A stretch of DNA of 64,000 nucleotides from Candidatus Parcubacteria bacterium (GCA_026395595.1 JAPLYL010000005.1:12853-76852), one strand, 5' to 3'; counted from the stretch's first letter, positions 2,976 to 62,537 are shown. Notes: a model not told the origin generated them from the letters alone. Translations and numbers: made by a program.

Positions 2976-3020
2976 TGAGCAGTAGAGGAATTTCGCTCAT
3001 TACATGAGCAGTACAGGTTT

Positions 3021-3074
3021 CACCACAAGAGTACTTCCATTTTAATAGTCGCTTTGCTCCTTTAAAATTAGGTC
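3021..3074 (+). repeat. Copy A of the dispersed 54-bp core repeat (caccacaagagtacttccattttaatagtcgctttgctcctttaaaattaggtc).
   Basis: Near-identical cores at 32879-32932 and 43105-43158, and inverted at 39189-39242. Confidence 0.8.
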
Positions 3075-3170
3075 GCGTGTCTCGTTTCGCCGACCTTGGC
3101 TCACTACGACACTCTCAACCTCTTCGAATCCTCCCGCAAGTAAAGCGGTTCACTTGCTTACCGCCCACAA

Positions 3171-3200
3171 ATAAAAAAGCCTCAACGGGCTTTTTTATTT
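3171..3200. terminator. Bidirectional terminator hairpin (aaaaaagcc tcaac gggctttttt) downstream of tRNA-Val.
   Basis: Palindromic stem with A-run and T-run on either side. Confidence 0.65.
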
Positions 3201-3201
3201 G

Positions 3202-3274
3202 TGGGCGGTAGAGGATTCGAACCTCTGACATCTACAACGTCAATGTAGCGCTCTACCAACTGAGCTAACCGCCC
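3202..3274 (-). tRNA. tRNA-Val (anticodon GAC)
   Basis: The reverse complement folds as a cloverleaf. Acceptor is GGGCGGT/ACCGCCC, D-arm GCTC-AGTTGGTA-GAGC, anticodon loop TTGACGT, T-arm AGAGG-TTCGAAT-CCTCT. Confidence 0.9.
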
Positions 3275-3476
3275 TTATTCAATTGTACTCACTCGGCGTT
3301 ATCAGCCAAAATTCTTTTGTAACCTTTCAAGAGGCTACACAGTTGATAGTATCATACCCACAGAGAAATTTCCAGAGGATTACAGTGAAAAGTCTCTTTA
3401 CTCCAAACTATTGCATTTATAATATATCTATGGTATAATGAGAACAAGCTTAAAAAGCAAATAAACATACATCTTT

Positions 3477-4220
3477 ATGCCAACACAGCAAAAAAAGACG
3501 AAGCATGTTCCCAACTCAAAAACAGGCGCGCCAAAAGACGTCGCAGACTTTCGCGGGTCATTCCCTTGGAGAATCTTTCGCATTATGTCCGAATTTGTTG
3601 ACGGTTGGCAATTTCTTGCCGACTTTGACAAGACCGTAACTGTTTTCGGTTCTGCAAGAACAGGAGAAGATGATCGTTGGTACAAAGAAGCGCAAAAACT
3701 TGGAAAAATACTCGCCAAAGACGGTTATTCTATCGTCACCGGCGGTGGTCCCGGAATAATGGAAGCAGCAAACAGAGGCTCTTTTGAAAACGGGGGCGGA
3801 TCCATCGGTTTGGACATCAAACTCCCCTTTGAACAGAAAGAAAATCCGTACGTCAGAAAAGGAGTTGGTTTCTACTACTTCTTTGTCAGAAAGGTTATGC
3901 TCGCTTACTCAGCCCGCGCCTATATCTATTTCCCGGGAGGATTCGGAACTTTGGACGAACTCTTTGAAATCGTCACTCTTATCCAAACCAAAAAAGTCAC
4001 TCAGACTATTCCGGTCGTTCTCATCGGAAAAGAATTCTGGACCCCGATGCTTAAATGGATAAATGAAACAGTCATTGATAAATATCAAGCCGCCAGCGTT
4101 GAAGACAAAGCCATCTATCGGGTAGTAGATACTGCGGAAGAAGCTTACGAGATTATCAAAAAAGCTCCTGCTCGTCACGAATTTGAAGAGTACGTTACCA
4201 CCCACAAATCACACGCTTAA
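3477..4220 (+). CDS. LOG family protein (cytokinin riboside 5'-monophosphate phosphoribohydrolase-like; TIGR00730 type)
   Basis: Motifs TGGGPGIMEAANRG and PGGFGTLDELFE. Confidence 0.85.
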   Translation: MPTQQKKTKHVPNSKTGAPKDVADFRGSFPWRIFRIMSEFVDGWQFLADFDKTVTVFGSARTGEDDRWYKEAQKLGKILAKDGYSIVTGGGPGIMEAANRGSFENGGGSIGLDIKLPFEQKENPYVRKGVGFYYFFVRKVMLAYSARAYIYFPGGFGTLDELFEIVTLIQTKKVTQTIPVVLIGKEFWTPMLKWINETVIDKYQAASVEDKAIYRVVDTAEEAYEIIKKAPARHEFEEYVTTHKSHA

Positions 4221-9565: not shown

Positions 9566-9817
9566 CAGCCTGGTAGTTTTTGTACATGAGGTGACGATTG
9601 GCGGAACTTTGAACCAACAAGTAGGTTAAATTCCACCAAGCTTAATAAAAGTATACAAAAACTGAGGAAAATCTACAGAGAAAATCCTGCGTATTTTGAA
9701 ATTTCGGAGTTTGCACAGAAAACCTACTAAACATCAAAGCGTCCGACCGAACCGACAATTTTTCTCTGTCCTATTATATTATACAACAAACTTTCCGTTA
9801 TTATCCGCTACAATCGG

Positions 9818-10138
9818 CTACACACCTTGAACCTTTTTATTTTTTAACTTCCGAACAAGGAAAAAAGCTAAAACAAAAAAGACTTCCCATATAGCAGCAG
9901 ATAAAATTATCCCGCTTGTCGTGGGTAGTGACCAATAAGCAGTTACATACATACCTAATCCTTTAAGCAGAGGAGTAAATGGTAGAGTAGGTAAAATTAC
10001 CGACATGGCTAAAATTTCTGATAGCGTTCTGACTACGCTCGGCAATTGCATGTCGAAATTGTTTAGAAGGAATGAAGCTAGGAAAGTTAAGCACATGTAG
10101 ATTGGAAAAGCTATAGCTAGAAATCTAAAAAATTTCAT
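9818..10138 (-). CDS. Small hypothetical membrane protein (3 predicted transmembrane segments)
   Basis: Hydrophobic composition and ORF integrity only. Confidence 0.4.
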   Translation of the reverse strand: MKFFRFLAIAFPIYMCLTFLASFLLNNFDMQLPSVVRTLSEILAMSVILPTLPFTPLLKGLGMYVTAYWSLPTTSGIILSAAIWEVFFVLAFFLVRKLKNKKVQGV

Positions 10139-10294
10139 ATTTTGTGATTAATTTAGTTAATGATTTTATTTTAGCATATTTTATACAACTGACCTTCGGT
10201 TCGAATCCCTTGCAGGTAAGCATATTTTATCAAATTTTGTTTTTAAAATGTGCCGTAAAATAAGGATTTTTACTTGCTCATTTTTCAAAACCAT

Positions 10295-10385
10295 TGGCGG
10301 AGAGGAAGAGATTTGAACTCTTGAGGCAGTTTCCCGCCTGCCGGTTTTCGAAACCGGTGCCTTAGACCAACTCAGCCACCTCTCC
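10295..10385 (-). tRNA. tRNA-Ser (anticodon CGA), with a long variable arm and an encoded CCA.
   Basis: The reverse complement folds as a cloverleaf. Acceptor GGAGAGG, anticodon loop TTCGAAA, long variable stem CAGGCGGGAAACTGCCT, T-arm AAGAG-TTCAAAT-CTCTT, and 3' GCCA. Confidence 0.88.
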
Positions 10386-10472
10386 AAGATTATTTGAGAT
10401 AATCCACAATATAATAGCATACCCCCTTTGATTTTTCCAGACAAATATGATATATTCTAACCATAGCCAACA

Positions 10473-10544
10473 GGCCCTATCGTCTAACGGTTAGGACGGA
10501 AGCTTTTCAAGCTTTAAATCAGAGTTCGATTCTCTGTAGGGTCA
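10473..10544 (+). tRNA. tRNA-Glu (anticodon TTC)
   Basis: Acceptor GGCCCTA/TAGGGTC, D-region TCGTCTAACGGTTAGGAC, anticodon loop TTTTCAA, T-arm CAGAG-TTCGATT-CTCTG. Confidence 0.85.
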
Positions 10545-10590
10545 CAGCAGAAAACACCGCTTTAATAGGCGGTGTTTTTTGTGGTTTGTA
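10537..10590 (+). repeat. Last 8 nt of tRNA-Glu (3' acceptor strand plus discriminator) plus a terminator hairpin (aacaccgctttaataggcggtgttttttg). This is copy A of a thrice-repeated module.
   Basis: Closely similar sequence at 11491-11541. A related 5' portion occurs at 12323-12395. Confidence 0.7.
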
Positions 10591-10695
10591 AGGCTCTAAA
10601 AATGTTTTCAGAACCAAAAAAAAACGAGCGAGCTTGACAAATTTTTATTTTTAGTTTAGTATAAAAACTGCATCTAATTCGGATGGAATTATGGG

Positions 10696-11229
10696 GTGGA
10701 TACCCCAAGGGGCAAACAAATGATTAAGTTCTTTAAAAACGCGAAAACTAATCAAGATAAAGATTTCGATGACTGGAAACAGCAAAAAAATGCCGTTGCC
10801 AAAGGGCTATTGCGAGACTTTCCTTGGCTCTGGGCTATTAGAAACCATCATTCTTGGGATGACGGTGAGTACACCAAGGTTAATCAAAATATGGAAGACC
10901 TCAAATCGGTTCTTAGACAATCATCAGACAACTCCAGATTCTCCGTTTGGGGAATAACAAGTCAGGCGTGTGGAGTCTTCAATGTGAGAGCAACATGCTT
11001 TAACCGTTCAGAAGGAAGTATGTGGGCTGAGGCTATCATGCAACAAAATGAATTGTTATCGGATATTCTTTATCTGGTTATTGTTGATCCACTATGGGGA
11101 GAATCACACCCAACTCGTCGTATCACTATTTTTCGTCACACTGAAAAAAAACGATTGAACGAATTGATTGAACATGTGTGTCAACTTCATGGTAGTAATG
11201 CTCATTGGCTAATTTCCTTAGGCGAATAA
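10696..11229 (+). CDS. Hypothetical protein (177 aa)
   Basis: Intact ORF between the tRNA-Glu-end repeats. No recognisable motif. Confidence 0.5.
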   Translation: MDTPRGKQMIKFFKNAKTNQDKDFDDWKQQKNAVAKGLLRDFPWLWAIRNHHSWDDGEYTKVNQNMEDLKSVLRQSSDNSRFSVWGITSQACGVFNVRATCFNRSEGSMWAEAIMQQNELLSDILYLVIVDPLWGESHPTRRITIFRHTEKKRLNELIEHVCQLHGSNAHWLISLGE

Positions 11230-55441: not shown

Positions 55442-57067
55442 TTACTCCTCGCTCATTAATTCCACGAAAAACGTGGCGCCTTTGCCTTCACCCTCGGATT
55501 CGGCCCAGATTTTGCCGTGGTGGGACTTCATCATTTCTTGGGCGATGTATAAACCGATGCCGTTGCCGTCGGCATAGGTTTTTTGCACGTCTTTGGCGCG
55601 GTTGAATTTTTGGAAGAGATTGCTGATGGTTTCCGGAGACATTCCGATACCGCTGTCGTGGATGGAAATGCGCGTTTTGTTCGTCATGAAATCTTTTGTC
55701 AAAGAAACTTCAACGGACTGCCCTTCTTTGCTGTATTTGATCGCGTTGTCTATCAAGTTTGAAAGCACCTGACGGATTTTATTGTCGTCCGCCGTAACAT
55801 TGTAATTCCCGTTGCCGTCATCAGTAAAACGCAGTTCTTTCTTCTCGTTTTTCGCCCGCGTGGAAAATTCTTCAACCATTCCGGAAAGAAGTCCGCGCAT
55901 TTCCACGGTGCTAAACGTATACACCATTTTCCCTTGTTCTATATGGCTGATGGTCAAGAAGTCATCAATTGTTCCCGCAAGCCGCCGACTGGACTCATAC
56001 ACCTTATCCACCACTTCCGCCGCCTTGTCGGAAAGTTTCCCGTAAGACCCCTCCAACAGCATGGAAGAATATCCGATAATAGCCGTAAGCGGAGTCCTCA
56101 ACTGATGCGAAGCAATGGAAACAAATTCCGATTTCTGCTTGTCCAAAACACGAAGGTGTTCATTGGCAAGTTCAAGTTCCTTGGCAAGCTTTTCAGCGTA
56201 TTCTCTACTTTCAACATCTTTGAGAACACCCTTCACCAACAAAAAAGAGAAGAATGTTACCATACCCAATAAAGCAATTCGTATAGCGATTTCTTTTCCC
56301 GATTGAGAAAGGAATACTTCTCCAAAAAACACAGAAACAATAAGGAGGGCGAATATCTCTGTCGCAACAATTTTAATATCCAGCAGGTGATGTCTCACTA
56401 TCGCGTATGCGATCGTAAGCGACATGGCAATAGAAGTTACGGGACCAAGCCAAAAAAAACGGAAAGAACCAAGGGCGGGAGCGATAAGGTTCACAGAAAG
56501 ACCGCTTACCGTGGTGATTAAAGTCCCCACCAAAACATAAGCGATTTGAACTTTAATTATTCCGTCATTCTTAAAATACTTGCGAATCAACCTAACATAA
56601 CCCCATAAAAAATAAAAAACGATATATGCCCCGTACGATAAATATCCTTCGCCGAAGGTGATGATTTTATATCCTGAAAGAGATTGGTTTATCTCCCGAA
56701 TAATAAACCCATCCATCATAACCAAAAACATTATCAGCAAAGCGGGCAAAGAAATAAGGAGGCTGTTTCTATAATCCAAAACAGCCTCTTCTTCGGGAAA
56801 TGTGTAGGTAAAAAATACAAAAAAAAGCGGTATTAAACAGGCCACAACATACAAACTTTCTGTAACAATACGAAGGTAGACACTTTGAACAGAGATGGTT
56901 TCAAAAAAGAATCGAACAAGCGCCCAAAGAGCGACAGAAAAAGAGATGGAAGAAAAGAAAAAACCGTTTCTTTTTGCTTTTGCATTTGCATATATAATAA
57001 AACCCAAAACCAAATCCACCGCCACAGCAGCAAGCAAACTTATACTTGAAAAACTAATTATTGGCAT
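55442..57067 (-). CDS. Membrane sensor histidine kinase
   Basis: Six N-terminal transmembrane helices, an H-box HQLRTPLT, and HATPase N/G1/G2 boxes (NLIDNAIKY, DSGIGM, GIGLYIA). Confidence 0.88.
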   Translation of the reverse strand: MPIISFSSISLLAAVAVDLVLGFIIYANAKAKRNGFFFSSISFSVALWALVRFFFETISVQSVYLRIVTESLYVVACLIPLFFVFFTYTFPEEEAVLDYRNSLLISLPALLIMFLVMMDGFIIREINQSLSGYKIITFGEGYLSYGAYIVFYFLWGYVRLIRKYFKNDGIIKVQIAYVLVGTLITTVSGLSVNLIAPALGSFRFFWLGPVTSIAMSLTIAYAIVRHHLLDIKIVATEIFALLIVSVFFGEVFLSQSGKEIAIRIALLGMVTFFSFLLVKGVLKDVESREYAEKLAKELELANEHLRVLDKQKSEFVSIASHQLRTPLTAIIGYSSMLLEGSYGKLSDKAAEVVDKVYESSRRLAGTIDDFLTISHIEQGKMVYTFSTVEMRGLLSGMVEEFSTRAKNEKKELRFTDDGNGNYNVTADDNKIRQVLSNLIDNAIKYSKEGQSVEVSLTKDFMTNKTRISIHDSGIGMSPETISNLFQKFNRAKDVQKTYADGNGIGLYIAQEMMKSHHGKIWAESEGEGKGATFFVELMSEE

Positions 57068-57113: not shown

Positions 57114-57788
57114 TTATTTTAAAATTTCTCCTACCCCCCCCATAACTTTTTCAGTAGCAATTTTTTTATAGTCTTGAGGAACCGGATTTTCATATCCTTC
57201 AAACAGTTCTTCCGGATAAATCGGTTTTCCGAATCGTATCGTCACGAAACGCTTTCGCAAAAGAAATTCTTTCAAGGTTATATGCAAAATTCCCGAAACG
57301 GCAACTGGAACGATTGGAACATTTGCCGCTTTTGCCAAAGCGACAACACCGCCCTTTGCTTCGGACAAACCCCCATCTTTACTCCTGTGTCCTTCGGGGA
57401 AAATAGCAACATTTTTCCCTTCTTTCAAAAGTTTTATATGCGAAGCGAGCGATTTTTCATAATCTTTAACTCCGAAAACAGCAGAATAAACACCAAAACA
57501 ATGCAAAACTGTTTCCGTGTAAAAAAATGAACCGGATAAGCCTTCTTTATAAAACTTTTCTTCTCGAGCGATAAAATAGAGAGGCAGTATTCTTGAAAAC
57601 AAATTAAAACTCCCGGAAATCAGTAGCCCGTCCCCCTCGCTTACATGATTAGCCGCGAAGATAATACCGTTTTTCAATCCTTTCAAATTTTCTTTTCCGC
57701 AGACCTGAAAATGCAGAAAAAAGGCAAACAGGGGTCTCCCGATAAGCCAAGCAAGACGTTGTGATAGTGAAGCGATAATATGCATCAT
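57114..57788 (-). CDS. plsC: 1-acyl-sn-glycerol-3-phosphate acyltransferase (LPLAT family)
   Basis: HxxxxD motif NHVSEGD and FPEGHRS. Start placed at MMHII because an extended -10 (TGGTATAAT) lies immediately upstream. Confidence 0.75.
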   Translation of the reverse strand: MMHIIASLSQRLAWLIGRPLFAFFLHFQVCGKENLKGLKNGIIFAANHVSEGDGLLISGSFNLFSRILPLYFIAREEKFYKEGLSGSFFYTETVLHCFGVYSAVFGVKDYEKSLASHIKLLKEGKNVAIFPEGHRSKDGGLSEAKGGVVALAKAANVPIVPVAVSGILHITLKEFLLRKRFVTIRFGKPIYPEELFEGYENPVPQDYKKIATEKVMGGVGEILK

Positions 57789-57846
57789 AAAGGTATATCT
57801 ATTATACCAACAAAAAGCACAAAAGCCCATAAGACAGTCTTCTGTC

Positions 57847-58160
57847 TCAACTTCGGTAAACTTCGGAGATTTTTGTCATTACTTTTTCATTCGCGATTTT
57901 TTTATAGTCCTTTTCTGTCGGATTTTCATATCCTTCAAAAAGTTCTTCGGGATAAATCGGTTTTCCAAAACGAACAACGGCTTTGTGTCTTCTCAGTAAA
58001 AAGTCTTTCAATTTTATTCTGTAAAGTCCGGAAATGGCAACAGGAATAATGGGCAGACCTGTTATTTGAGACAATGCTACGATTCCTCCTTTTGCTTCTC
58101 CCATTTTTCCATCTTTGCTTATTCCTCCTTCCGGAAAAAAACCGACATTTCTTCCCTTGC
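57847..58160 (-). pseudogene. Truncated duplicate of the plsC 3' portion (about 105 codons, in frame). It is bounded upstream by the left end of the transposon-like unit.
   Basis: The translation RNVGFFPEGGISKDGKMGEAKGGIVALSQITGLPIIPVAISGL...FGKPIYPEELFEGYENP aligns with plsC residues about 130-230. There is no HxxxxD N-terminal half. Confidence 0.65.
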
Positions 58161-58175
58161 GGGGAATCCGGGACA

Positions 58176-58958
58176 GGAATCCGGGACAGTCACGATTATT
58201 TCATAAAATCTGTGTCATAATATACTAAAACTACATCTTTCTTGGTCTTCCTGAACATCGCTTGGTTGATTCAAGATGATGGTTGGCAATCATCGTATCA
58301 ACCCAAGCATCCCTTCCATAAGGAACCCCTTTATTGATTGAAGTACGAATTAAAGAAATCTCTTCTTCTTTTTCCGGAGTATTTACCCATTGAGAATAAG
58401 CATCGGGAATTGGCGTAGGAGAATCATCTAAGAGTTTTTGTTCTTCCTGTGTTCCACTTACTCGTCGCCATGAGCTTCCCCACCGCCAATCTTCACATCT
58501 TTCTGAAAGCTTTGCACGAACAGGATTTCTTTCCACGTATTTGATTAAAGAGAGAAGGTAACTATCATTATCCACCAAAAAAGATTTGTATCTTCCTTGA
58601 TACAGATGACCTGTCCCAATCGTTTTTGTCTGCACATGATAGTTTCTGGTATGAGAGTTGGAAAGACGATGCATAAAAATCCCCATGTCCCCGTCATTTT
58701 TCGGAGAAAGAACAAAGTGCCAATGATTCGGCATTATTGTGTAAGCTATTATGCTCATACCAGTAAGTTCTTTTGCTTCCGATATTAATTTCTCAAAAAG
58801 TTGGTAATCTTCTTTGGTGCGGAAAATAGTCAAACGTCCATTGGCGCGATTGATGACATGATATACTTCATTGGCGAGATCAACTCGAGCAAGTCTTGGC
58901 ATAAACTTTTATATTATATCATAGATTTCAGAAAAGAACCGTGACTGTCCCGGATTCC
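58176..58958 (-). mobile_element. IS200/IS605-like or RAYT-like transposon unit: a single HUH-Y1 transposase gene flanked by 19-bp inverted repeats (ggaatccgggacagtcacg / cgtgactgtcccggattcc).
   Basis: Inverted repeats at 58176-58194 and 58940-58958. An extra direct copy of ggaatccgggacag lies at 58163-58176. Confidence 0.7.
58231..58902 (-). CDS. HUH-superfamily Y1 transposase (IS200/IS605 TnpA-like / REP-associated tyrosine transposase-like)
   Basis: HuH motif PNHWHFVL and catalytic-Tyr region GHLYQGRYKS; 223 aa. Confidence 0.75.
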   Translation of the reverse strand: MPRLARVDLANEVYHVINRANGRLTIFRTKEDYQLFEKLISEAKELTGMSIIAYTIMPNHWHFVLSPKNDGDMGIFMHRLSNSHTRNYHVQTKTIGTGHLYQGRYKSFLVDNDSYLLSLIKYVERNPVRAKLSERCEDWRWGSSWRRVSGTQEEQKLLDDSPTPIPDAYSQWVNTPEKEEEISLIRTSINKGVPYGRDAWVDTMIANHHLESTKRCSGRPRKM

Positions 58959-58979
58959 GCGGATTCAACGGATTTCCCG

Positions 58980-60266
58980 TTATTTTAGCATATCATCAAG
59001 TTCACAAGATAAAAGAACCGATTTCGTAAGAACAATCTCTTCTTTTGAATTGAAATTATCCGCAGTCGCTCGGATTATTTTTGTCGTTATGCTGTCACCA
59101 AACATCGTCCGGTTTGTTTTTTTGAAATATGCCTCGGTTTTTTTGTAAAACAAATCAGCATACCGAAGAAGTTTTTCTTGAGATGCCGGCGGATGGCTGG
59201 TTCCGTTTGAGGTAAATTCAATTTTATTATCGAGGTGTTTGTCTATTTCTCGTTCAGTTATGACCATGTCGTTGAAAATAACCCAATAGTCGCTCAATAT
59301 GAATTTTATCAGAATTTGCACATCGTCATCTGTCTGATAAAGAAATGAAAAATAAAAACGATCATTGAGTAAATCCTCAAAAACTTTTACTCTTTCCAAT
59401 CCCATGACTGTTCTTATTTTATATTTTCCAAGCAAGTAAAGATAACTTTCTCGCCAGTTCGCCAGCCAATCTTCAATAAAATTTCGATTCAAAAATAACG
59501 GAGAAAGATCCTGTTTGAGATTCGCATCACTCACTTTATTCATTTTCAAAGTTAGTTTATCAAAGAGCGAACGCAAATCGGTTACGTCTATCTTTTTTGC
59601 GATAAGATAATCCAAATCGGGAACGGCGGCTTTTCCCATATACCAAAGCAAGTCATAAATATCACGCCCTTTTTCTTCATAGAGAGCTTCTCCGACCCCG
59701 CGAGTTCCGCGCGTAAAAATAGCAGCAATCTTGCTCGCCATAAGCGAAGACATATTGTATGTGATGATAACAAACGACAACTGCCCGCGATTGATCGGGA
59801 TACGTTCGGTAACGGTTTTCGGAGCGGTAAAATGATTAAGATCAATCTTCACATAGATCTGCTTTGACGGGTGACCGATACCGAGCGTCTCACCGATATG
59901 GAATTTTAATGTGAGCCCGCGTTCGCTTGTGATTTTTATGGAAAGAAAATCATCGCTTGCAGCAAATGAATTTGAAAAATACGAAAGAATTTCATTCTTA
60001 AGAGTTTCCAAAAAGGTATCGGTAACTTTTTCCGGCACTTCAAAATCCAGATCAACCGACATTCGATCGAGACCGTGACAAATGCGAAGCGCCGAACCGC
60101 CGTACATAATCCATTTGCCATATTCCGGATGATGGTAAATAAAATTGAGAACATAAAACTGCAATTCTTCCTTCAGAACATTGCGCTCCGTTTCAACGTC
60201 AACCGACTGCCCGCTCGAAATTTCGCTCAGTTTATTCCTAAGATTTGCGAGAATAATTTCACTCAT
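58980..60266 (-). CDS. AbiEii/AbiGii-family nucleotidyltransferase toxin (type IV TA / abortive infection), long form
   Basis: DUF1814-like N-terminal motif YGGSALRICHGLDRMSVDLDFEV. It overlaps the upstream antitoxin gene by 8 nt. Confidence 0.65.
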   Translation of the reverse strand: MSEIILANLRNKLSEISSGQSVDVETERNVLKEELQFYVLNFIYHHPEYGKWIMYGGSALRICHGLDRMSVDLDFEVPEKVTDTFLETLKNEILSYFSNSFAASDDFLSIKITSERGLTLKFHIGETLGIGHPSKQIYVKIDLNHFTAPKTVTERIPINRGQLSFVIITYNMSSLMASKIAAIFTRGTRGVGEALYEEKGRDIYDLLWYMGKAAVPDLDYLIAKKIDVTDLRSLFDKLTLKMNKVSDANLKQDLSPLFLNRNFIEDWLANWRESYLYLLGKYKIRTVMGLERVKVFEDLLNDRFYFSFLYQTDDDVQILIKFILSDYWVIFNDMVITEREIDKHLDNKIEFTSNGTSHPPASQEKLLRYADLFYKKTEAYFKKTNRTMFGDSITTKIIRATADNFNSKEEIVLTKSVLLSCELDDMLK

Positions 60267-60879
60267 GGTCGTAATGTTTTTTTAGCATTAAATAAAACTT
60301 TTCTTTTTCCTCATCACTCATTTCATTCATGTCTACCCGCAATTCATCGATGAGTCTATCTATTTTTTCAAGAGAGACATCGCGAAACTGTCGCGTTTTA
60401 AAATAGAGCATATCAAAAAGCGCTTTGGAAGGAGTAGCGATATAGAAATCGAACTTTCCATGTACAAGGGAAAAATCGGAAAATAGTTCTTTTTTAATGG
60501 TGTGATAAGAAAAACTGCCGGCTTTTGTTTCCCGGCTTCGCGTTCCTTTTGCCGTTACCGAAGTAATGGTGCGAATCGCTTCGGTCGCGAGATTATAATA
60601 CTGCAAAGCGCTCCATGAACTTATGTACGATGGAGAACGTAAGATGTTTGCCAAAAAAAATGTATACGAAATATCATTGGAATTTTTTACATAAAAGTCC
60701 GTTGAAACATACATCCCGTTTTTCAACTGAAAGATATCCTTGCGCTTCAAATATCGGCTGATATACGTATCAACCGTTTTTGGCGCCAATCTGCCCGACT
60801 CCCCCAGACGATATACGGTCTGTTTATCAAAATATGGCAGAGTTTTTAACTGCTCAATGAGATTATATGCTCGTTTCAT
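60259..60879 (-). CDS. AbiEi-family antitoxin / transcriptional regulator
   Basis: About 200 aa, located directly upstream of and overlapping the AbiEii-like gene. N-terminal wHTH-like region. Confidence 0.55.
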   Translation of the reverse strand: MKRAYNLIEQLKTLPYFDKQTVYRLGESGRLAPKTVDTYISRYLKRKDIFQLKNGMYVSTDFYVKNSNDISYTFFLANILRSPSYISSWSALQYYNLATEAIRTITSVTAKGTRSRETKAGSFSYHTIKKELFSDFSLVHGKFDFYIATPSKALFDMLYFKTRQFRDVSLEKIDRLIDELRVDMNEMSDEEKEKFYLMLKKHYDHE

Positions 60880-61017
60880 AATTATGACACTATTGTATCA
60901 AAAGTGAAACGTGTTGTCAATATCAGAGTTTTCCACAACCATCTCCCTCCTCAATAATCGCCATTCAAGCATCGTCCTATGCTCGGAGCAGACAAAAGAG
61001 AGTCGATATTTTATCAC

Positions 61018-62106
61018 CTATTTCGCGTGAGAATGGAAGCCGTAGGATTGGGCGAGTTCGGACATTTTGGGGATGTTTTTGTAGTCTACTTTGCCGACAA
61101 AACCGCCATTTTTGGTTCTTTCTCCGGCAAGTATCATCGTTTCAGTCAGGCAAGAAAACAGTGCTCCTTCCGGCAGACCGATGTTGAATTTATAGGTAAT
61201 CTGCGGAGCGGAGATTAACCCGCCGTCCATAAAAATGATATCTTTTCTTTTTTCAAGTAATTCTTTCGGGGTATTTTTCGGCTGAGTGAGGTCGTAAATA
61301 ACGACGCCTTCTTTCAGAAATTCCGATTTCATCACCGCCCCCTCCGCGCTCGTCGTAACGACGACCATATCGGCCTCCCATACTTTTGTGATATCGTTCG
61401 TGCCGATTATTTCCATTTTTATTTTCTCCGGCAACGCTTCAATTTCTTTTTCCAACGTTTCTATATTCGCCAGCGTTCGGCTCATAAGAATAAGCCGGTT
61501 CACGCTGTGTTTTGTGTTCGTGGCAATTTCCTTGGCGATAGCGCTTCCGATGGAACCGGTGGCGCCAATAACGGCGATCGTTTTTATGGCGGATCCGGCT
61601 TTTGCGAGATAGGTTTCTATGTCTCCGACGGCGATCGTGGCGGTAAGAGTATTTCCGGAAGTAACCGATATTTTTGTTTTTCCGATAACGTCTTTCCCTC
61701 CTTCGGTAACACTGGAAGTAAAAGCACCCAGACCGACAATTTTTGCCCCCATTTTTTCCGCAAGAGCAACCGCCTGCAGAACTTTTTTGCGCGCCGAATC
61801 TTTGTCTTCCAGCATTTGTTTTCCGGTAAGAGGGACGGCGATCATCCAGCCTCGGACAGGCGCGCCGTCAATCCGACTTTGCAGACCTCGGATATCGGTA
61901 ACGACCATCGGCCAGTGATGACGCAGAAAAAATTCAACAACCTTTTCCGGAAAAATTTTCAAGAACGGATATTTTTCCAGCACGTCGCGCATATTCCTCG
62001 GATGAACGATGAAAGCGAAATTATATTCTTTCGGATCAGAACGATCCGGAAGAAGGCGAACGAATAAATCGCGAATATCCCGAGCAATAAGTTTTATGAT
62101 TTTCAT
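61018..62106 (-). CDS. Acyl-ACP reductase (AAR)-like NAD(P)-dependent oxidoreductase
   Basis: Blocks shared with cyanobacterial long-chain acyl-ACP reductase: LGAFTSSV, TSGNTLTA, IAVIGATGSIGSAIA, YDLTQPKN. Confidence 0.55.
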   Translation of the reverse strand: MKIIKLIARDIRDLFVRLLPDRSDPKEYNFAFIVHPRNMRDVLEKYPFLKIFPEKVVEFFLRHHWPMVVTDIRGLQSRIDGAPVRGWMIAVPLTGKQMLEDKDSARKKVLQAVALAEKMGAKIVGLGAFTSSVTEGGKDVIGKTKISVTSGNTLTATIAVGDIETYLAKAGSAIKTIAVIGATGSIGSAIAKEIATNTKHSVNRLILMSRTLANIETLEKEIEALPEKIKMEIIGTNDITKVWEADMVVVTTSAEGAVMKSEFLKEGVVIYDLTQPKNTPKELLEKRKDIIFMDGGLISAPQITYKFNIGLPEGALFSCLTETMILAGERTKNGGFVGKVDYKNIPKMSELAQSYGFHSHAK

Positions 62107-62183: not shown

Positions 62184-62537
62184 TTATCTCCAAATTTCCG
62201 ATTTAAAAAACTGTTCTTGAAAATTTGTGGATTTTCGTATCTCTTCGTCTGAAATTTTCGTACCATCGGGAACAATGACGAGTTTATCATCATCGTCATT
62301 CGTTCGGTGGAGTATAGCGACGCATCTGCCGGTAAATTCAGGAACCGGTTCGTTTACTCCGAGCAGATAGGCGTCCAATTCCTCGCCGTCCGGAGCTTTG
62401 GTATCGGGAACAAATCCATAATTGATCTCGTAGACAAAACCATGTTTCGGGTGTTGAGAATGCAAGGGCCGGTCAATTTTAATCGTTACCGTCTGACCAA
62501 GGTATGGGGTTGAATAACTTTTATTTTTTTCTTCCAT
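62184..62537 (-). CDS. ppa: Inorganic pyrophosphatase (short form)
   Basis: Core motif EINYGFVPDT...DGEELDAYLL. Only 117 aa. Confidence 0.6.
   Translation of the reverse strand: MEEKNKSYSTPYLGQTVTIKIDRPLHSQHPKHGFVYEINYGFVPDTKAPDGEELDAYLLGVNEPVPEFTGRCVAILHRTNDDDDKLVIVPDGTKISDEEIRKSTNFQEQFFKSEIWR

Follow-up and report, generated by a model that had tools for sequence, protein, structure and literature searches.

Do a transposase gene, a defense gene pair and a truncated acyltransferase gene that lie end to end form one mobile element, or have separate pieces come to rest side by side? The question is raised by a stretch of 64,000 nucleotides from a Candidatus Parcubacteria metagenome-assembled genome, MAG (GCA_026395595.1, JAPLYL010000005.1:12853-76852), which is the sequence analyzed here and is called the window; positions are counted from its first letter. 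The locus, referred to as the islet, contains the 3' part of a plsC gene (plsC'), a HUH-Y1 transposase gene between inverted repeats, and an AbiE-like gene pair, and it adjoins an intact plsC. A sequence-only reading, made from the DNA alone, had described the islet as a mobile defense module that duplicated part of plsC on insertion or was captured with it. All of the features it listed are present where it placed them (the Y1 open reading frame, ORF, the 19-bp repeats, the extra direct copy, the plsC fragment, plsC, and the AbiE pair), and searches with hidden Markov models bear out its protein assignments: Y1_Tnp (PF01797) scores 56.5 bits against a cutoff of 23 over the 223-aa protein, AbiEii scores 73.5 bits against 22.5, and AbiEi is matched by PADLOC at E 2.6e-37. 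The account of the locus that we favor is a different one. The interval from the stop codon of a reductase-like gene (61018) to the promoter or start of the native plsC (~57830/57788) is probably a variable slot that holds three independent accessory pieces. The islet is an ordinary mosaic, not a new composite mobile element.

A slot between the reductase gene and plsC

According to ORF calls over the window, the minus strand carries all of the genes from 55.4 to 64 kb, and in order of transcription they are those for inorganic pyrophosphatase, the reductase-like protein, AbiEi, AbiEii, the Y1-HUH protein, plsC', plsC, and a histidine kinase (Table 1). The closest relative found, L084, has the same order of reductase, slot, plsC and kinase, with amino acid identities of 92% for PlsC, 83% for the kinase and 92% for the end of the reductase, and its cargo is entirely different: a slot of ~3 kb containing a 58-aa ORF, a histidine phosphatase (His_Phos_1), a NUDIX protein, and a 459-aa protein. 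Homology between L084 and the window is lost where the reductase gene ends and again at the start codon of plsC, apart from ~40 nt upstream of plsC in which a local alignment detects weak similarity of promoter sequence. Among more distant sisters, L015-L018 have plsC ahead of the reductase gene with an overlap of 14 nt (the reductase is 77-78% identical to those of L015 and L016), and in L019-L021 the reductase gene is preceded by a non-overlapping acyltransferase gene whose product is only 35% identical to the PlsC of the window. No islet genes were found in L015-L021. Because the cargo of L084 differs and the sisters lack the islet, we conclude that the islet occupies a variable slot from ~57830 to 61017, a gap of 3.2 kb flanked on either side by a gene of lipid metabolism. 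These limits agree well with those drawn in the sequence-only reading, and its description of the region as accessory likewise holds. Relative to L015 and L016, the changes in gene order and in the pyrophosphatase place the reductase gene between two synteny breakpoints.

Several further observations concern the genes around the slot. The position and strand of the pyrophosphatase gene in the window and L084 also differ from those in closer sisters. The overlapping plsC and reductase genes of two sisters (L015:7116-8913, L016:5605-7405) are probably translationally coupled. The 459-aa protein in the slot of L084 (L084:1607-2986) has an N-terminal GS...DLD motif resembling that of nucleotidyltransferases; its sole Pfam match is a weak NDK-like one (E 0.008), and PADLOC gave no match. 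A scan of genome contigs with the reductase protein returned no relatives, and no RNA families were detected by Rfam between 56.9 and 61.3 kb.

Table 1. Features of the islet and its flanks in the window, with positions in nucleotides.
Feature	Position	Strand	Remarks
Histidine kinase gene	55442-57067	-	
Native plsC (lysophospholipid acyltransferase, 224 aa)	57114-57788	-	Lower flank of slot; PF01553 E 1.6e-18; HX4D is NHVSEGD
Spacer, plsC' stop to plsC start	57789-57846	-	~40 nt plsC promoter-like, TGGTATAAT, weakly common to L084
plsC', 104 codons and stop	57847-58161	-	PF01553 positions 89-132, E 2.8e-07
Inverted repeat, outer 13 nt, extra tandem copy GGAATCCGGGACA	58163-58175	+	At the plsC' junction
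Inverted repeat downstream of TIRYT gene	58176-58224	+	Outer 19 nt perfect; core cGGGACAG
TIRYT gene, HUH-Y1, 223 aa	58231-58902	-	PF01797 E 3.8e-15
Inverted repeat upstream of TIRYT gene	58910-58958	+	Outer 19 nt (58940-58958) perfect
Degenerate short repeats CGGATTC, CGGATTT	58959-58979	+	Occupy the entire gap to the abiEii stop codon
AbiEii C-terminal extension (aa 273-428 and stop)	58980-59450	-	Conserved alpha/beta region
AbiEii N-terminal nucleotidyltransferase region (aa 1-272)	59451-60266	-	PF08843 aa 46-272
abiEi, antitoxin/regulator gene, 206 aa	60259-60879	-	8-nt overlap with abiEii (ATGAGTGA)
AbiE cassette leader, conserved	60880-60990	-	Promoter-like TTGACA-17-TACAAT at 60920->60892
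Acyl-ACP-reductase-like gene, 362 aa	61018-62106	-	Upper flank of slot; TIGR04058 E 5e-25, below cutoff
Inorganic pyrophosphatase gene	62184-62537	-	

The TIRtron and its end repeats

The transposase gene lies in a unit with sharp ends. Perfect 19-bp inverted repeats (GGAATCCGGGACAGTCACG; 58176-58194 and 58940-58958) extend to 49-nt arms with 84% complementarity. The closest comparable unit elsewhere, L003, encodes a protein 79% identical to that of the window, and DNA homology between the two runs 58965->58178, with borders at 58176-58178 at one end and 58959-58965 at the other. Homology that extends exactly from repeat to repeat confirms a discrete unit of 783 bp (58176-58958). Most of the about 60 homologous loci compared, which come from Patescibacteria, Planctomycetota and Acidobacteriota, have inverted repeats whose core is of the GGGGACAG, GGGGTCAG or GGTGTCAG type and which usually lie no more than ~60 nt from the start and stop of the gene; equivalent inverted repeats were found in ~40 other homologs. 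The inner part of the upstream repeat in the window contains a TATAAT-like sequence before the start codon of the transposase gene.

Units of this kind have been named TIRtrons and their enzymes TIRYT (Di Nocera et al., 2013, PMC3733652), and they are equivalent to TnpA-Y1 subclass 2.1 (Quentin et al., 2018, PMC6006769) and to group 1 of the RAYT proteins (Bertels et al., 2017, PMC5581495). The parts of these papers that define subclass 2.1 give a median length of 238 aa, an N-H-x-H motif, a Y..(L)NP motif, an SS motif in the tail, flanking terminal inverted repeats with the consensus GGGGWSAS, and no repetitive extragenic palindromes, REPs; some members are described as carrying a distal tail like a helix-turn-helix, HTH, with similarity to Bac_DnaA_C, HTH_23 or HTH_28 (PMC6006769, PMC3733652). 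The window shares with the class a single Y1-HUH gene in the range of ~220-240 aa with N-H-x-H, Y-x-x-x-N-P and the SS tail motif, repeats ~30-40 nt from the gene with a core of the GGGGWSAS kind, no REP hairpins, and one copy in the window. It differs in that the repeat core cGGGACAG agrees with GGGGWSAS (PMC3733652) at 7/8 positions, that W replaces the V, Y or F of the published consensus in the middle of the HUH motif, that no C-terminal HTH is detectable with Pfam, and that the host belongs to the Candidate Phyla Radiation, CPR (Parcubacteria), a group that does not appear among the hosts in the portions of the surveys describing the class (PMC3733652, PMC6006769, PMC5581495). Judged by sequence, the 783-bp unit is best classified as a TIRtron, of TIRYT, RAYT group 1 and TnpA-Y1 subclass 2.1 type.

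Alignment with the structure of Escherichia coli TnpA-REP (4ER8) locates the active-site residues of the window enzyme. H60-W61-H62 aligns with H59-M60-H61, so that N59-H60-W61-H62 forms the HUH motif with an aromatic, hydrophobic residue in the middle, while Y122 of KYVERNP stands opposite the catalytic Y115 and N126 opposite N119, giving the class 2 motif Y122-V-E-R-N126-P127. The predicted catalytic tyrosine is Y122; the sequence GHLYQGRYKS, where the sequence-only reading had placed it, corresponds to the region of the family "WQ" motif. The tail contains S143-S144 within WRWGSSW, and the last 88 aa have no Pfam match even at E<=10. Homologs are numerous (1705 at E<=1e-10), and among the 120 listed nearly all are 222-226 aa long and 62-79% identical to the window protein. 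Exact-protein look-ups of TIRYT and AbiEii retrieved only the same locus in one other assembly (L001), and a scan of viral contigs (IMG/VR) with both proteins retrieved no relatives.

Related classes fit the unit less well. With E. coli TnpA-REP, the enzyme of a REPtron, it shares the HUH-Y1 core and the arrangement of a single gene flanked by inverted cognate copies; however, the window protein falls below the cutoff of the NCBIfam model for REP-associated tyrosine transposases (NF047646, 65.7 bits against 80), is ~60 aa longer, and is accompanied neither by GTAG-tagged REP hairpins nor by a dispersed REP/REPIN population. TnpA of the insertion sequence family IS200/IS605 (IS608, ISDra2) has the same PF01797 domain and HUH/Tyr chemistry, whereas the window enzyme has Y...NP rather than Y...Q and 223 aa rather than ~150, its repeats are terminal and inverted rather than subterminal hairpins, and there is no tnpB and no multiplicity of copies in the window. 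As single-stranded DNA, the ends of the TIRtron form only small stems of 3-7 bp (z-scores -0.35 to -2.1) and no REP-like hairpin. The repeat 14-mer occurs at three sites in the window, namely the two repeat ends and the extra copy; dispersed copies of the 14-mer or a 15-mer core were not found there beyond chance, and within these 64 kb the TIRYT gene has one copy and the repeat is confined to the unit. Given no convincing end hairpins and no dispersed copies in the window, membership of IS200/IS605 and of the REPtrons both fail, and with them the REP/RAYT logic proposed in the sequence-only reading.

Both ends of the TIRtron carry additional short copies of its outer repeat. At the plsC' junction, the 13-nt GGAATCCGGGACA (58163-58175) stands in tandem with 58176-58188, and at the other end degenerate GAA(A)TCCG units make up all of the sequence (58959-58979) that separates the upstream repeat from the abiEii stop codon. 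Such copies recur in the class: 11/41 TIRtrons have at least one extra copy of the repeat core no more than 70 nt outside a repeat, a density of 2.63/kb in contrast to 0.14/kb in control sequence (19-fold). Besides the window, such copies are present in L004, L010, L027, L030-L033, L057, L058, L069, and L072. The published descriptions of the class, in the parts that deal with its ends, do not mention short tandem copies of this type (PMC3733652, PMC6006769, PMC5581495). In L003 (706-936; also in L002), a 115-nt stretch of the left end comprising the inverted repeat, the promoter and the first 19 codons is present as a direct duplication with 98% identity, the start of the second copy coinciding exactly with the outer base of the repeat. 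Together, the extra copies and this duplication suggest, from the sequences compared, recombination precisely at the repeat ends, which does not by itself prove current mobility. Mechanistically, we infer by analogy with TnpA-REP that TIRYT, with a metal bound by its HUH residues, would form a 5'-phosphotyrosine at Y122 when it nicks single-stranded DNA at or close to the repeats, and the partial tandem copies at both ends may be by-products of end processing.

Other TIRYT loci showed a variety of arrangements. In a Saccharibacteria MAG (L031; CAYPFT010000014.1, flanks of 3001-3663), the repeat-core 9-mer TGGGGTCAG occurs 10 times in 5.2 kb with no more than one mismatch, and a partial second TIRYT copy lies at 2512-2940; these copies suggest a dispersed family of inverted repeats in that genome. 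Two different TIRYT paralogs of 231 and 223 aa stand in tandem in L004 (5069-5764 and 6001-6672), and likewise in L005-L008; each paralog in L004 has its own inverted repeats, those of the second type having the core TGTCAGGTACA. The nearest relative of the window enzyme (79% identical; L002:846-6835) adjoins genes of phage-like or cell-wall-lytic appearance, among them one for Amidase_2 and others encoding a 938-aa protein and a LysM protein. A TIRYT gene 3-6 kb from dnaA/dnaN and adjoining rnpA-yidC was seen in two separate lineages of Parcubacteria: in L004-L009 the gene at L004:6001-6672 is near dnaA at 9809-11158, and in L010-L014 the gene at L010:6001-6675 is near dnaA at 1032-2372. No dnaA was found in the window or in the short flanks examined for other TIRYT loci, and the proximity, seen in two lineages only, was not used as evidence.

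The AbiE cassette

The gene pair next to the TIRtron has conserved boundaries of its own. Its DNA is 84.7% identical to that of L022 over 60990->58980, a homology that takes in ~110 nt ahead of abiEi and breaks off exactly with the stop codon of abiEii; homology with L023 reaches 60937. The AbiEi proteins of the window and of these two loci are 82-86% identical, and the same pair of 206-aa and 427/428/430-aa proteins stands there in unrelated contexts. The conserved leader contains a near-consensus promoter-like sequence of the sigma-70 type (scan score 11/12, with an extended TG). On this comparison the AbiE cassette (58980-60990, 2.0 kb) appears to be a self-contained module. A side observation concerns L022:2-1192: the closest cassette found (AbiEii 89% identical) lies beside a short AbiEii-like ORF (PADLOC E 4e-67) and another nucleotidyltransferase-like ORF, together a small toxin/defense cluster.

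Both the arrangement of the genes and the toxin motifs are those of AbiE systems. As in the type IV toxin-antitoxin systems of Streptococcus agalactiae and lactococci (Dy et al., 2014, PMC3985639), a gene of the AbiEi family is immediately upstream of abiEii in an overlapping bicistronic arrangement. In common with AbiE and with mycobacterial MenAT (PMC7450476, PMC10435456, PMC11375011), nucleotidyltransferase motifs I-IV of the DUF1814/PF08843 domain are intact and a promoter is directly upstream. Besides its Pfam match over aa 46-272, AbiEii is matched by PADLOC (E 1e-26) and contains YGGSALRICHGLDRMSVDLDF at residues 55-75; following the motif definitions for S. agalactiae AbiEii (PMC3985639), the motif residues are G56 G57 S58; R68, D72 and D74; K179...R186; and R201-D202-x-x-D205, all invariant in 33 homologs. 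Unlike those systems, AbiEi is recognized by the PADLOC models only (no Pfam match; NCBIfam TAA_AbiEi 17.6 bits against a cutoff of 150), and sequence searches of the PDB with AbiEii, AbiEi and the AbiEii family profile gave nothing meaningful, including no match to the solved AbiEii or MenT structures. The published parts of the functional studies report GTP binding for S. agalactiae AbiEii and modification of the tRNA acceptor stem for MenT (PMC3985639, PMC7450476, PMC10435456, PMC11375011). By analogy with these proteins, AbiEii would act as a toxin with nucleotidyltransferase activity and block growth or translation, AbiEi would hold it in check and repress the operon promoter, and the pair may act as an abortive-infection or stabilization module.

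A further difference from AbiE and MenAT is a conserved extra ~150 aa at the C-terminus of the toxin. The sequence-only reading had pointed to a possible extra domain and had called 428 aa unusual for AbiEii; the first point is borne out by a distinct conserved region, and the second is not. At least 120 clusters of homologs at 64-89% identity are nearly all 427-428 aa long and come from several Patescibacteria groups, with one Pedobacter record, so by these sequences 428 aa appears to be the normal length of a widespread long AbiEii subfamily. When the C-terminal 159 aa were searched alone against 1.84 billion representatives, 60 proteins were retrieved; full-length matches always have the region at the C-terminus (most are ~420-437 aa, one is 487 aa), and the others are short products resembling fragments. 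The extension has no Pfam match even at E<=10. AlphaFold models predict an alpha/beta domain in which long strands run antiparallel and are accompanied by a beta hairpin and a long helix; the predicted local confidence (pLDDT) is ~85-93 over most of aa 284-400, and a Foldseek comparison of this fold with the PDB gave nothing significant (best E 0.03, TM 0.24). Conservation and model together indicate a conserved extra domain that would be a subfamily-specific addition; as a guess, it might recognize the substrate or sense the trigger.

The plsC' remnant and competing accounts of the islet

The intact plsC is best understood as the native ortholog, since its 73% amino acid identity to the plsC of L015 and L016 is in line with that of the reductase (78%) and the kinase (70%). 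Its start at 57788 matches the NCBI call MCX6736122.1 and the relatives. A 238-aa ORF from an upstream ATG at 57830 is a mechanical extension only, and this start is probably not real because the NCBI protein and the relatives begin with MMHIIASL or MHIIASL (57788/57785). The remnant, annotated by NCBI as a protein of 106 aa (MCX6736123.1), lacks a complete PF01553 domain: it matches the last third of the model only (positions 89-132 of 132), and the catalytic HX4D lies in the missing half. plsC' is 60% identical to the adjacent plsC in amino acids and 65% in nucleotides, 59.6% in amino acids to the plsC of L084, and 54% in amino acids and 61% in nucleotides to that of L015 and L016. In amino acids, the plsC of L084 is closer to the plsC of the window (92%) than plsC' is. 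Its frame has no internal stop, and against the adjacent plsC the proportion of synonymous differences (pS) is 0.65, with a synonymous divergence (dS) of ~1.5 and dN/dS of 0.22, which puts synonymous sites near saturation. This pattern, with the open frame, suggests that plsC' was still functional while it diverged and that its truncation is relatively recent. Homology to plsC starts within a few bases of the outermost repeat copy (~58160), so the breakpoint coincides with the end of the TIRtron. The 5' half that is missing does not occur anywhere else in the window. The plsC' stop is followed immediately, at approximately the slot boundary, by a perfect 6-bp hairpin (AGACAG-TCTT-CTGTCT, 57832-57847), within which GACAGTC matches 7 nt of the inverted-repeat core; this hairpin may be an old plsC' terminator, a coincidence or a pseudo-end.

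How plsC' came to lie there can be ranked by these data. One origin offered in the sequence-only reading is that part of the adjacent plsC was copied when the islet inserted, as would fit the tandem position of plsC', its orientation and frame, its start at the TIRtron end, and a 54-nt stretch that is 93% identical to plsC. The overall divergence given above is such that plsC' cannot be a duplication made on insertion, and the 54-nt stretch is also conserved in the sister plsC genes (up to 90% in 30-nt windows), which points to constraint rather than recency; this origin has next to no chance of being correct, and gene conversion of the stretch was rejected on the same ground. Campbell-type integration through plsC homology was rejected as well, as it predicts the order complete gene, insert, truncated gene, and what is found is a 3' fragment directly upstream of a complete gene. 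An older resident paralog in tandem (plsC2-plsC1), truncated in place by insertion of the TIRtron and deletion of the 5' half, accounts for the breakpoint, for the position of plsC' directly upstream of plsC with an apparent terminator hairpin of its own, and for its slightly greater similarity to the plsC of the window (60%) than to those of the sisters (54%). Deletions adjacent to transposases are well known. Against it, neither the slot of L084 nor L015-L021 contains a second plsC, the 5' half is missing from the window, and the fast turnover of the slot between genomes (window and L084) that are ~80% identical in nucleotides makes an ancient paralog with an intact frame less likely; we place it next in order, as a possible origin of plsC' that is rather unlikely. 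Favored, though unproven, is arrival of plsC' with foreign DNA next to the TIRtron, to which we give about an even chance, leaving the remainder to scenarios that we do not specify. In that case plsC' would be what is left, 104 codons from the 3' end, of a plsC with a functional past, either in a different lineage or as an old paralog, cut off exactly at the TIRtron end and lacking its catalytic HX4D half. The alternative offered in the sequence-only reading, that the fragment was captured with the islet, is likewise possible and unproven.

The islet as a whole can be read in other ways too. In one such reading the Y1 enzyme and its repeats mobilize the AbiE pair, with or without plsC', as one unit. 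In its favor, the parts touch: the degenerate end repeats of the TIRtron reach the abiEii stop codon, plsC' starts at its other end, and all genes share one strand. Yet the repeats enclose the Y1 gene only and cross-genome homology runs from repeat to repeat; no repeat copy lies beyond AbiE, and the AbiE cassette has conserved boundaries of its own. Moreover, AbiE was absent from the flanks of the ~60 TIRYT loci, and no TIRYT gene was found beside the closest AbiE cassettes, L022 and L023. As the two never co-occur elsewhere in this set, the best reading of their being neighbors in the window is that one permissive site received two independent insertions; nothing indicates that the Y1 enzyme moves the AbiE pair, and the composite mobile defense element proposed earlier is very improbable. 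A quite different possibility is that the Y1 gene is a domesticated, immobile host gene with RAYT-like housekeeping functions, its repeats being regulatory only, and not accessory cargo at all. The family is highly uniform (mostly 222-226 aa, 62-79% identity among the matches listed), the same protein occurs at one conserved position across many samples, and RAYT groups are described as housekeeping-like in the sections of the survey that compare them (PMC5581495). The gene is nevertheless absent from the slot in L084 and the sisters, its genomic contexts vary between lineages, the left-end duplication in L003 starts precisely at the outer base of the repeat, and group 1 is placed, in the same comparison, among the two most insertion-sequence-like RAYT groups (PMC5581495). 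We regard domestication as unlikely. Less likely still is an active TIRtron, a HUH element that leaves footprints when its ends are processed and that can carry neighboring DNA. ISCR/IS91 elements and Helitrons capture flanking genes by read-through to a pseudo-end. On this view the two 13-nt copies next to plsC', the three GAA(A)TCCG units next to AbiE and the similar arrays in about a quarter of TIRtrons would be scars of repeated nicking and rejoining, and plsC' would have come from a donor genome by transduction, with read-through that began at the normal end and stopped at a pseudo-end, for which the hairpin with GACAGTC (57832-57847) is a candidate.

A variable slot with three independent accessory pieces accounts best for the observations, and several points weigh against it. 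Base composition had been suggested as a check in the sequence-only reading; the slot has 38.8% GC compared to a window mean of 42.6% (SD of 2-kb windows 2.8%), which is in the lowest tenth and a mild deviation only, and GC and GC3 bias are too weak to decide origin. Copy counts of the TIRYT gene and its repeat cover 64 kb of a contig of 169,963 bp. No empty site was found for the TIRtron alone or for the AbiE cassette alone, and no close relative of plsC' was found (none above 40% amino acid identity in a scan of JGI metagenomes). The descriptions of the class, in the parts devoted to subclass 2.1, report no TIRYT activity (PMC6006769, PMC3733652). AbiEi is backed by the PADLOC models and the gene arrangement only, and the operator-type inverted repeats of AbiE systems were not found near it, where the only candidate is a 9-nt palindrome at the start codon.

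Both functional modules, AbiE and the TIRtron, are of described kinds, and the islet is a typical mosaic. What is mildly new is how abundant TIRtrons are in CPR bacteria and how sharply their architecture is conserved there, the recurrent arrays of repeats at their ends, and the uncharacterized C-terminal domain of the long AbiEii subfamily. To our knowledge, known defense systems are sparse in the small genomes of Patescibacteria; the long AbiEii subfamily is widespread among them, with a C-terminal domain that has no detectable relatives. The gap between the reductase gene and plsC is a potential marker locus for strain-level turnover of cargo in the clade. The TIRYT/TIRtron class is very common in CPR/Patescibacteria, and its sharp, conserved ends offer concrete substrates for a biochemical test; should an active TIRtron have captured plsC', this would be the first evidence of activity and of gene capture for this widespread class of enzymes.

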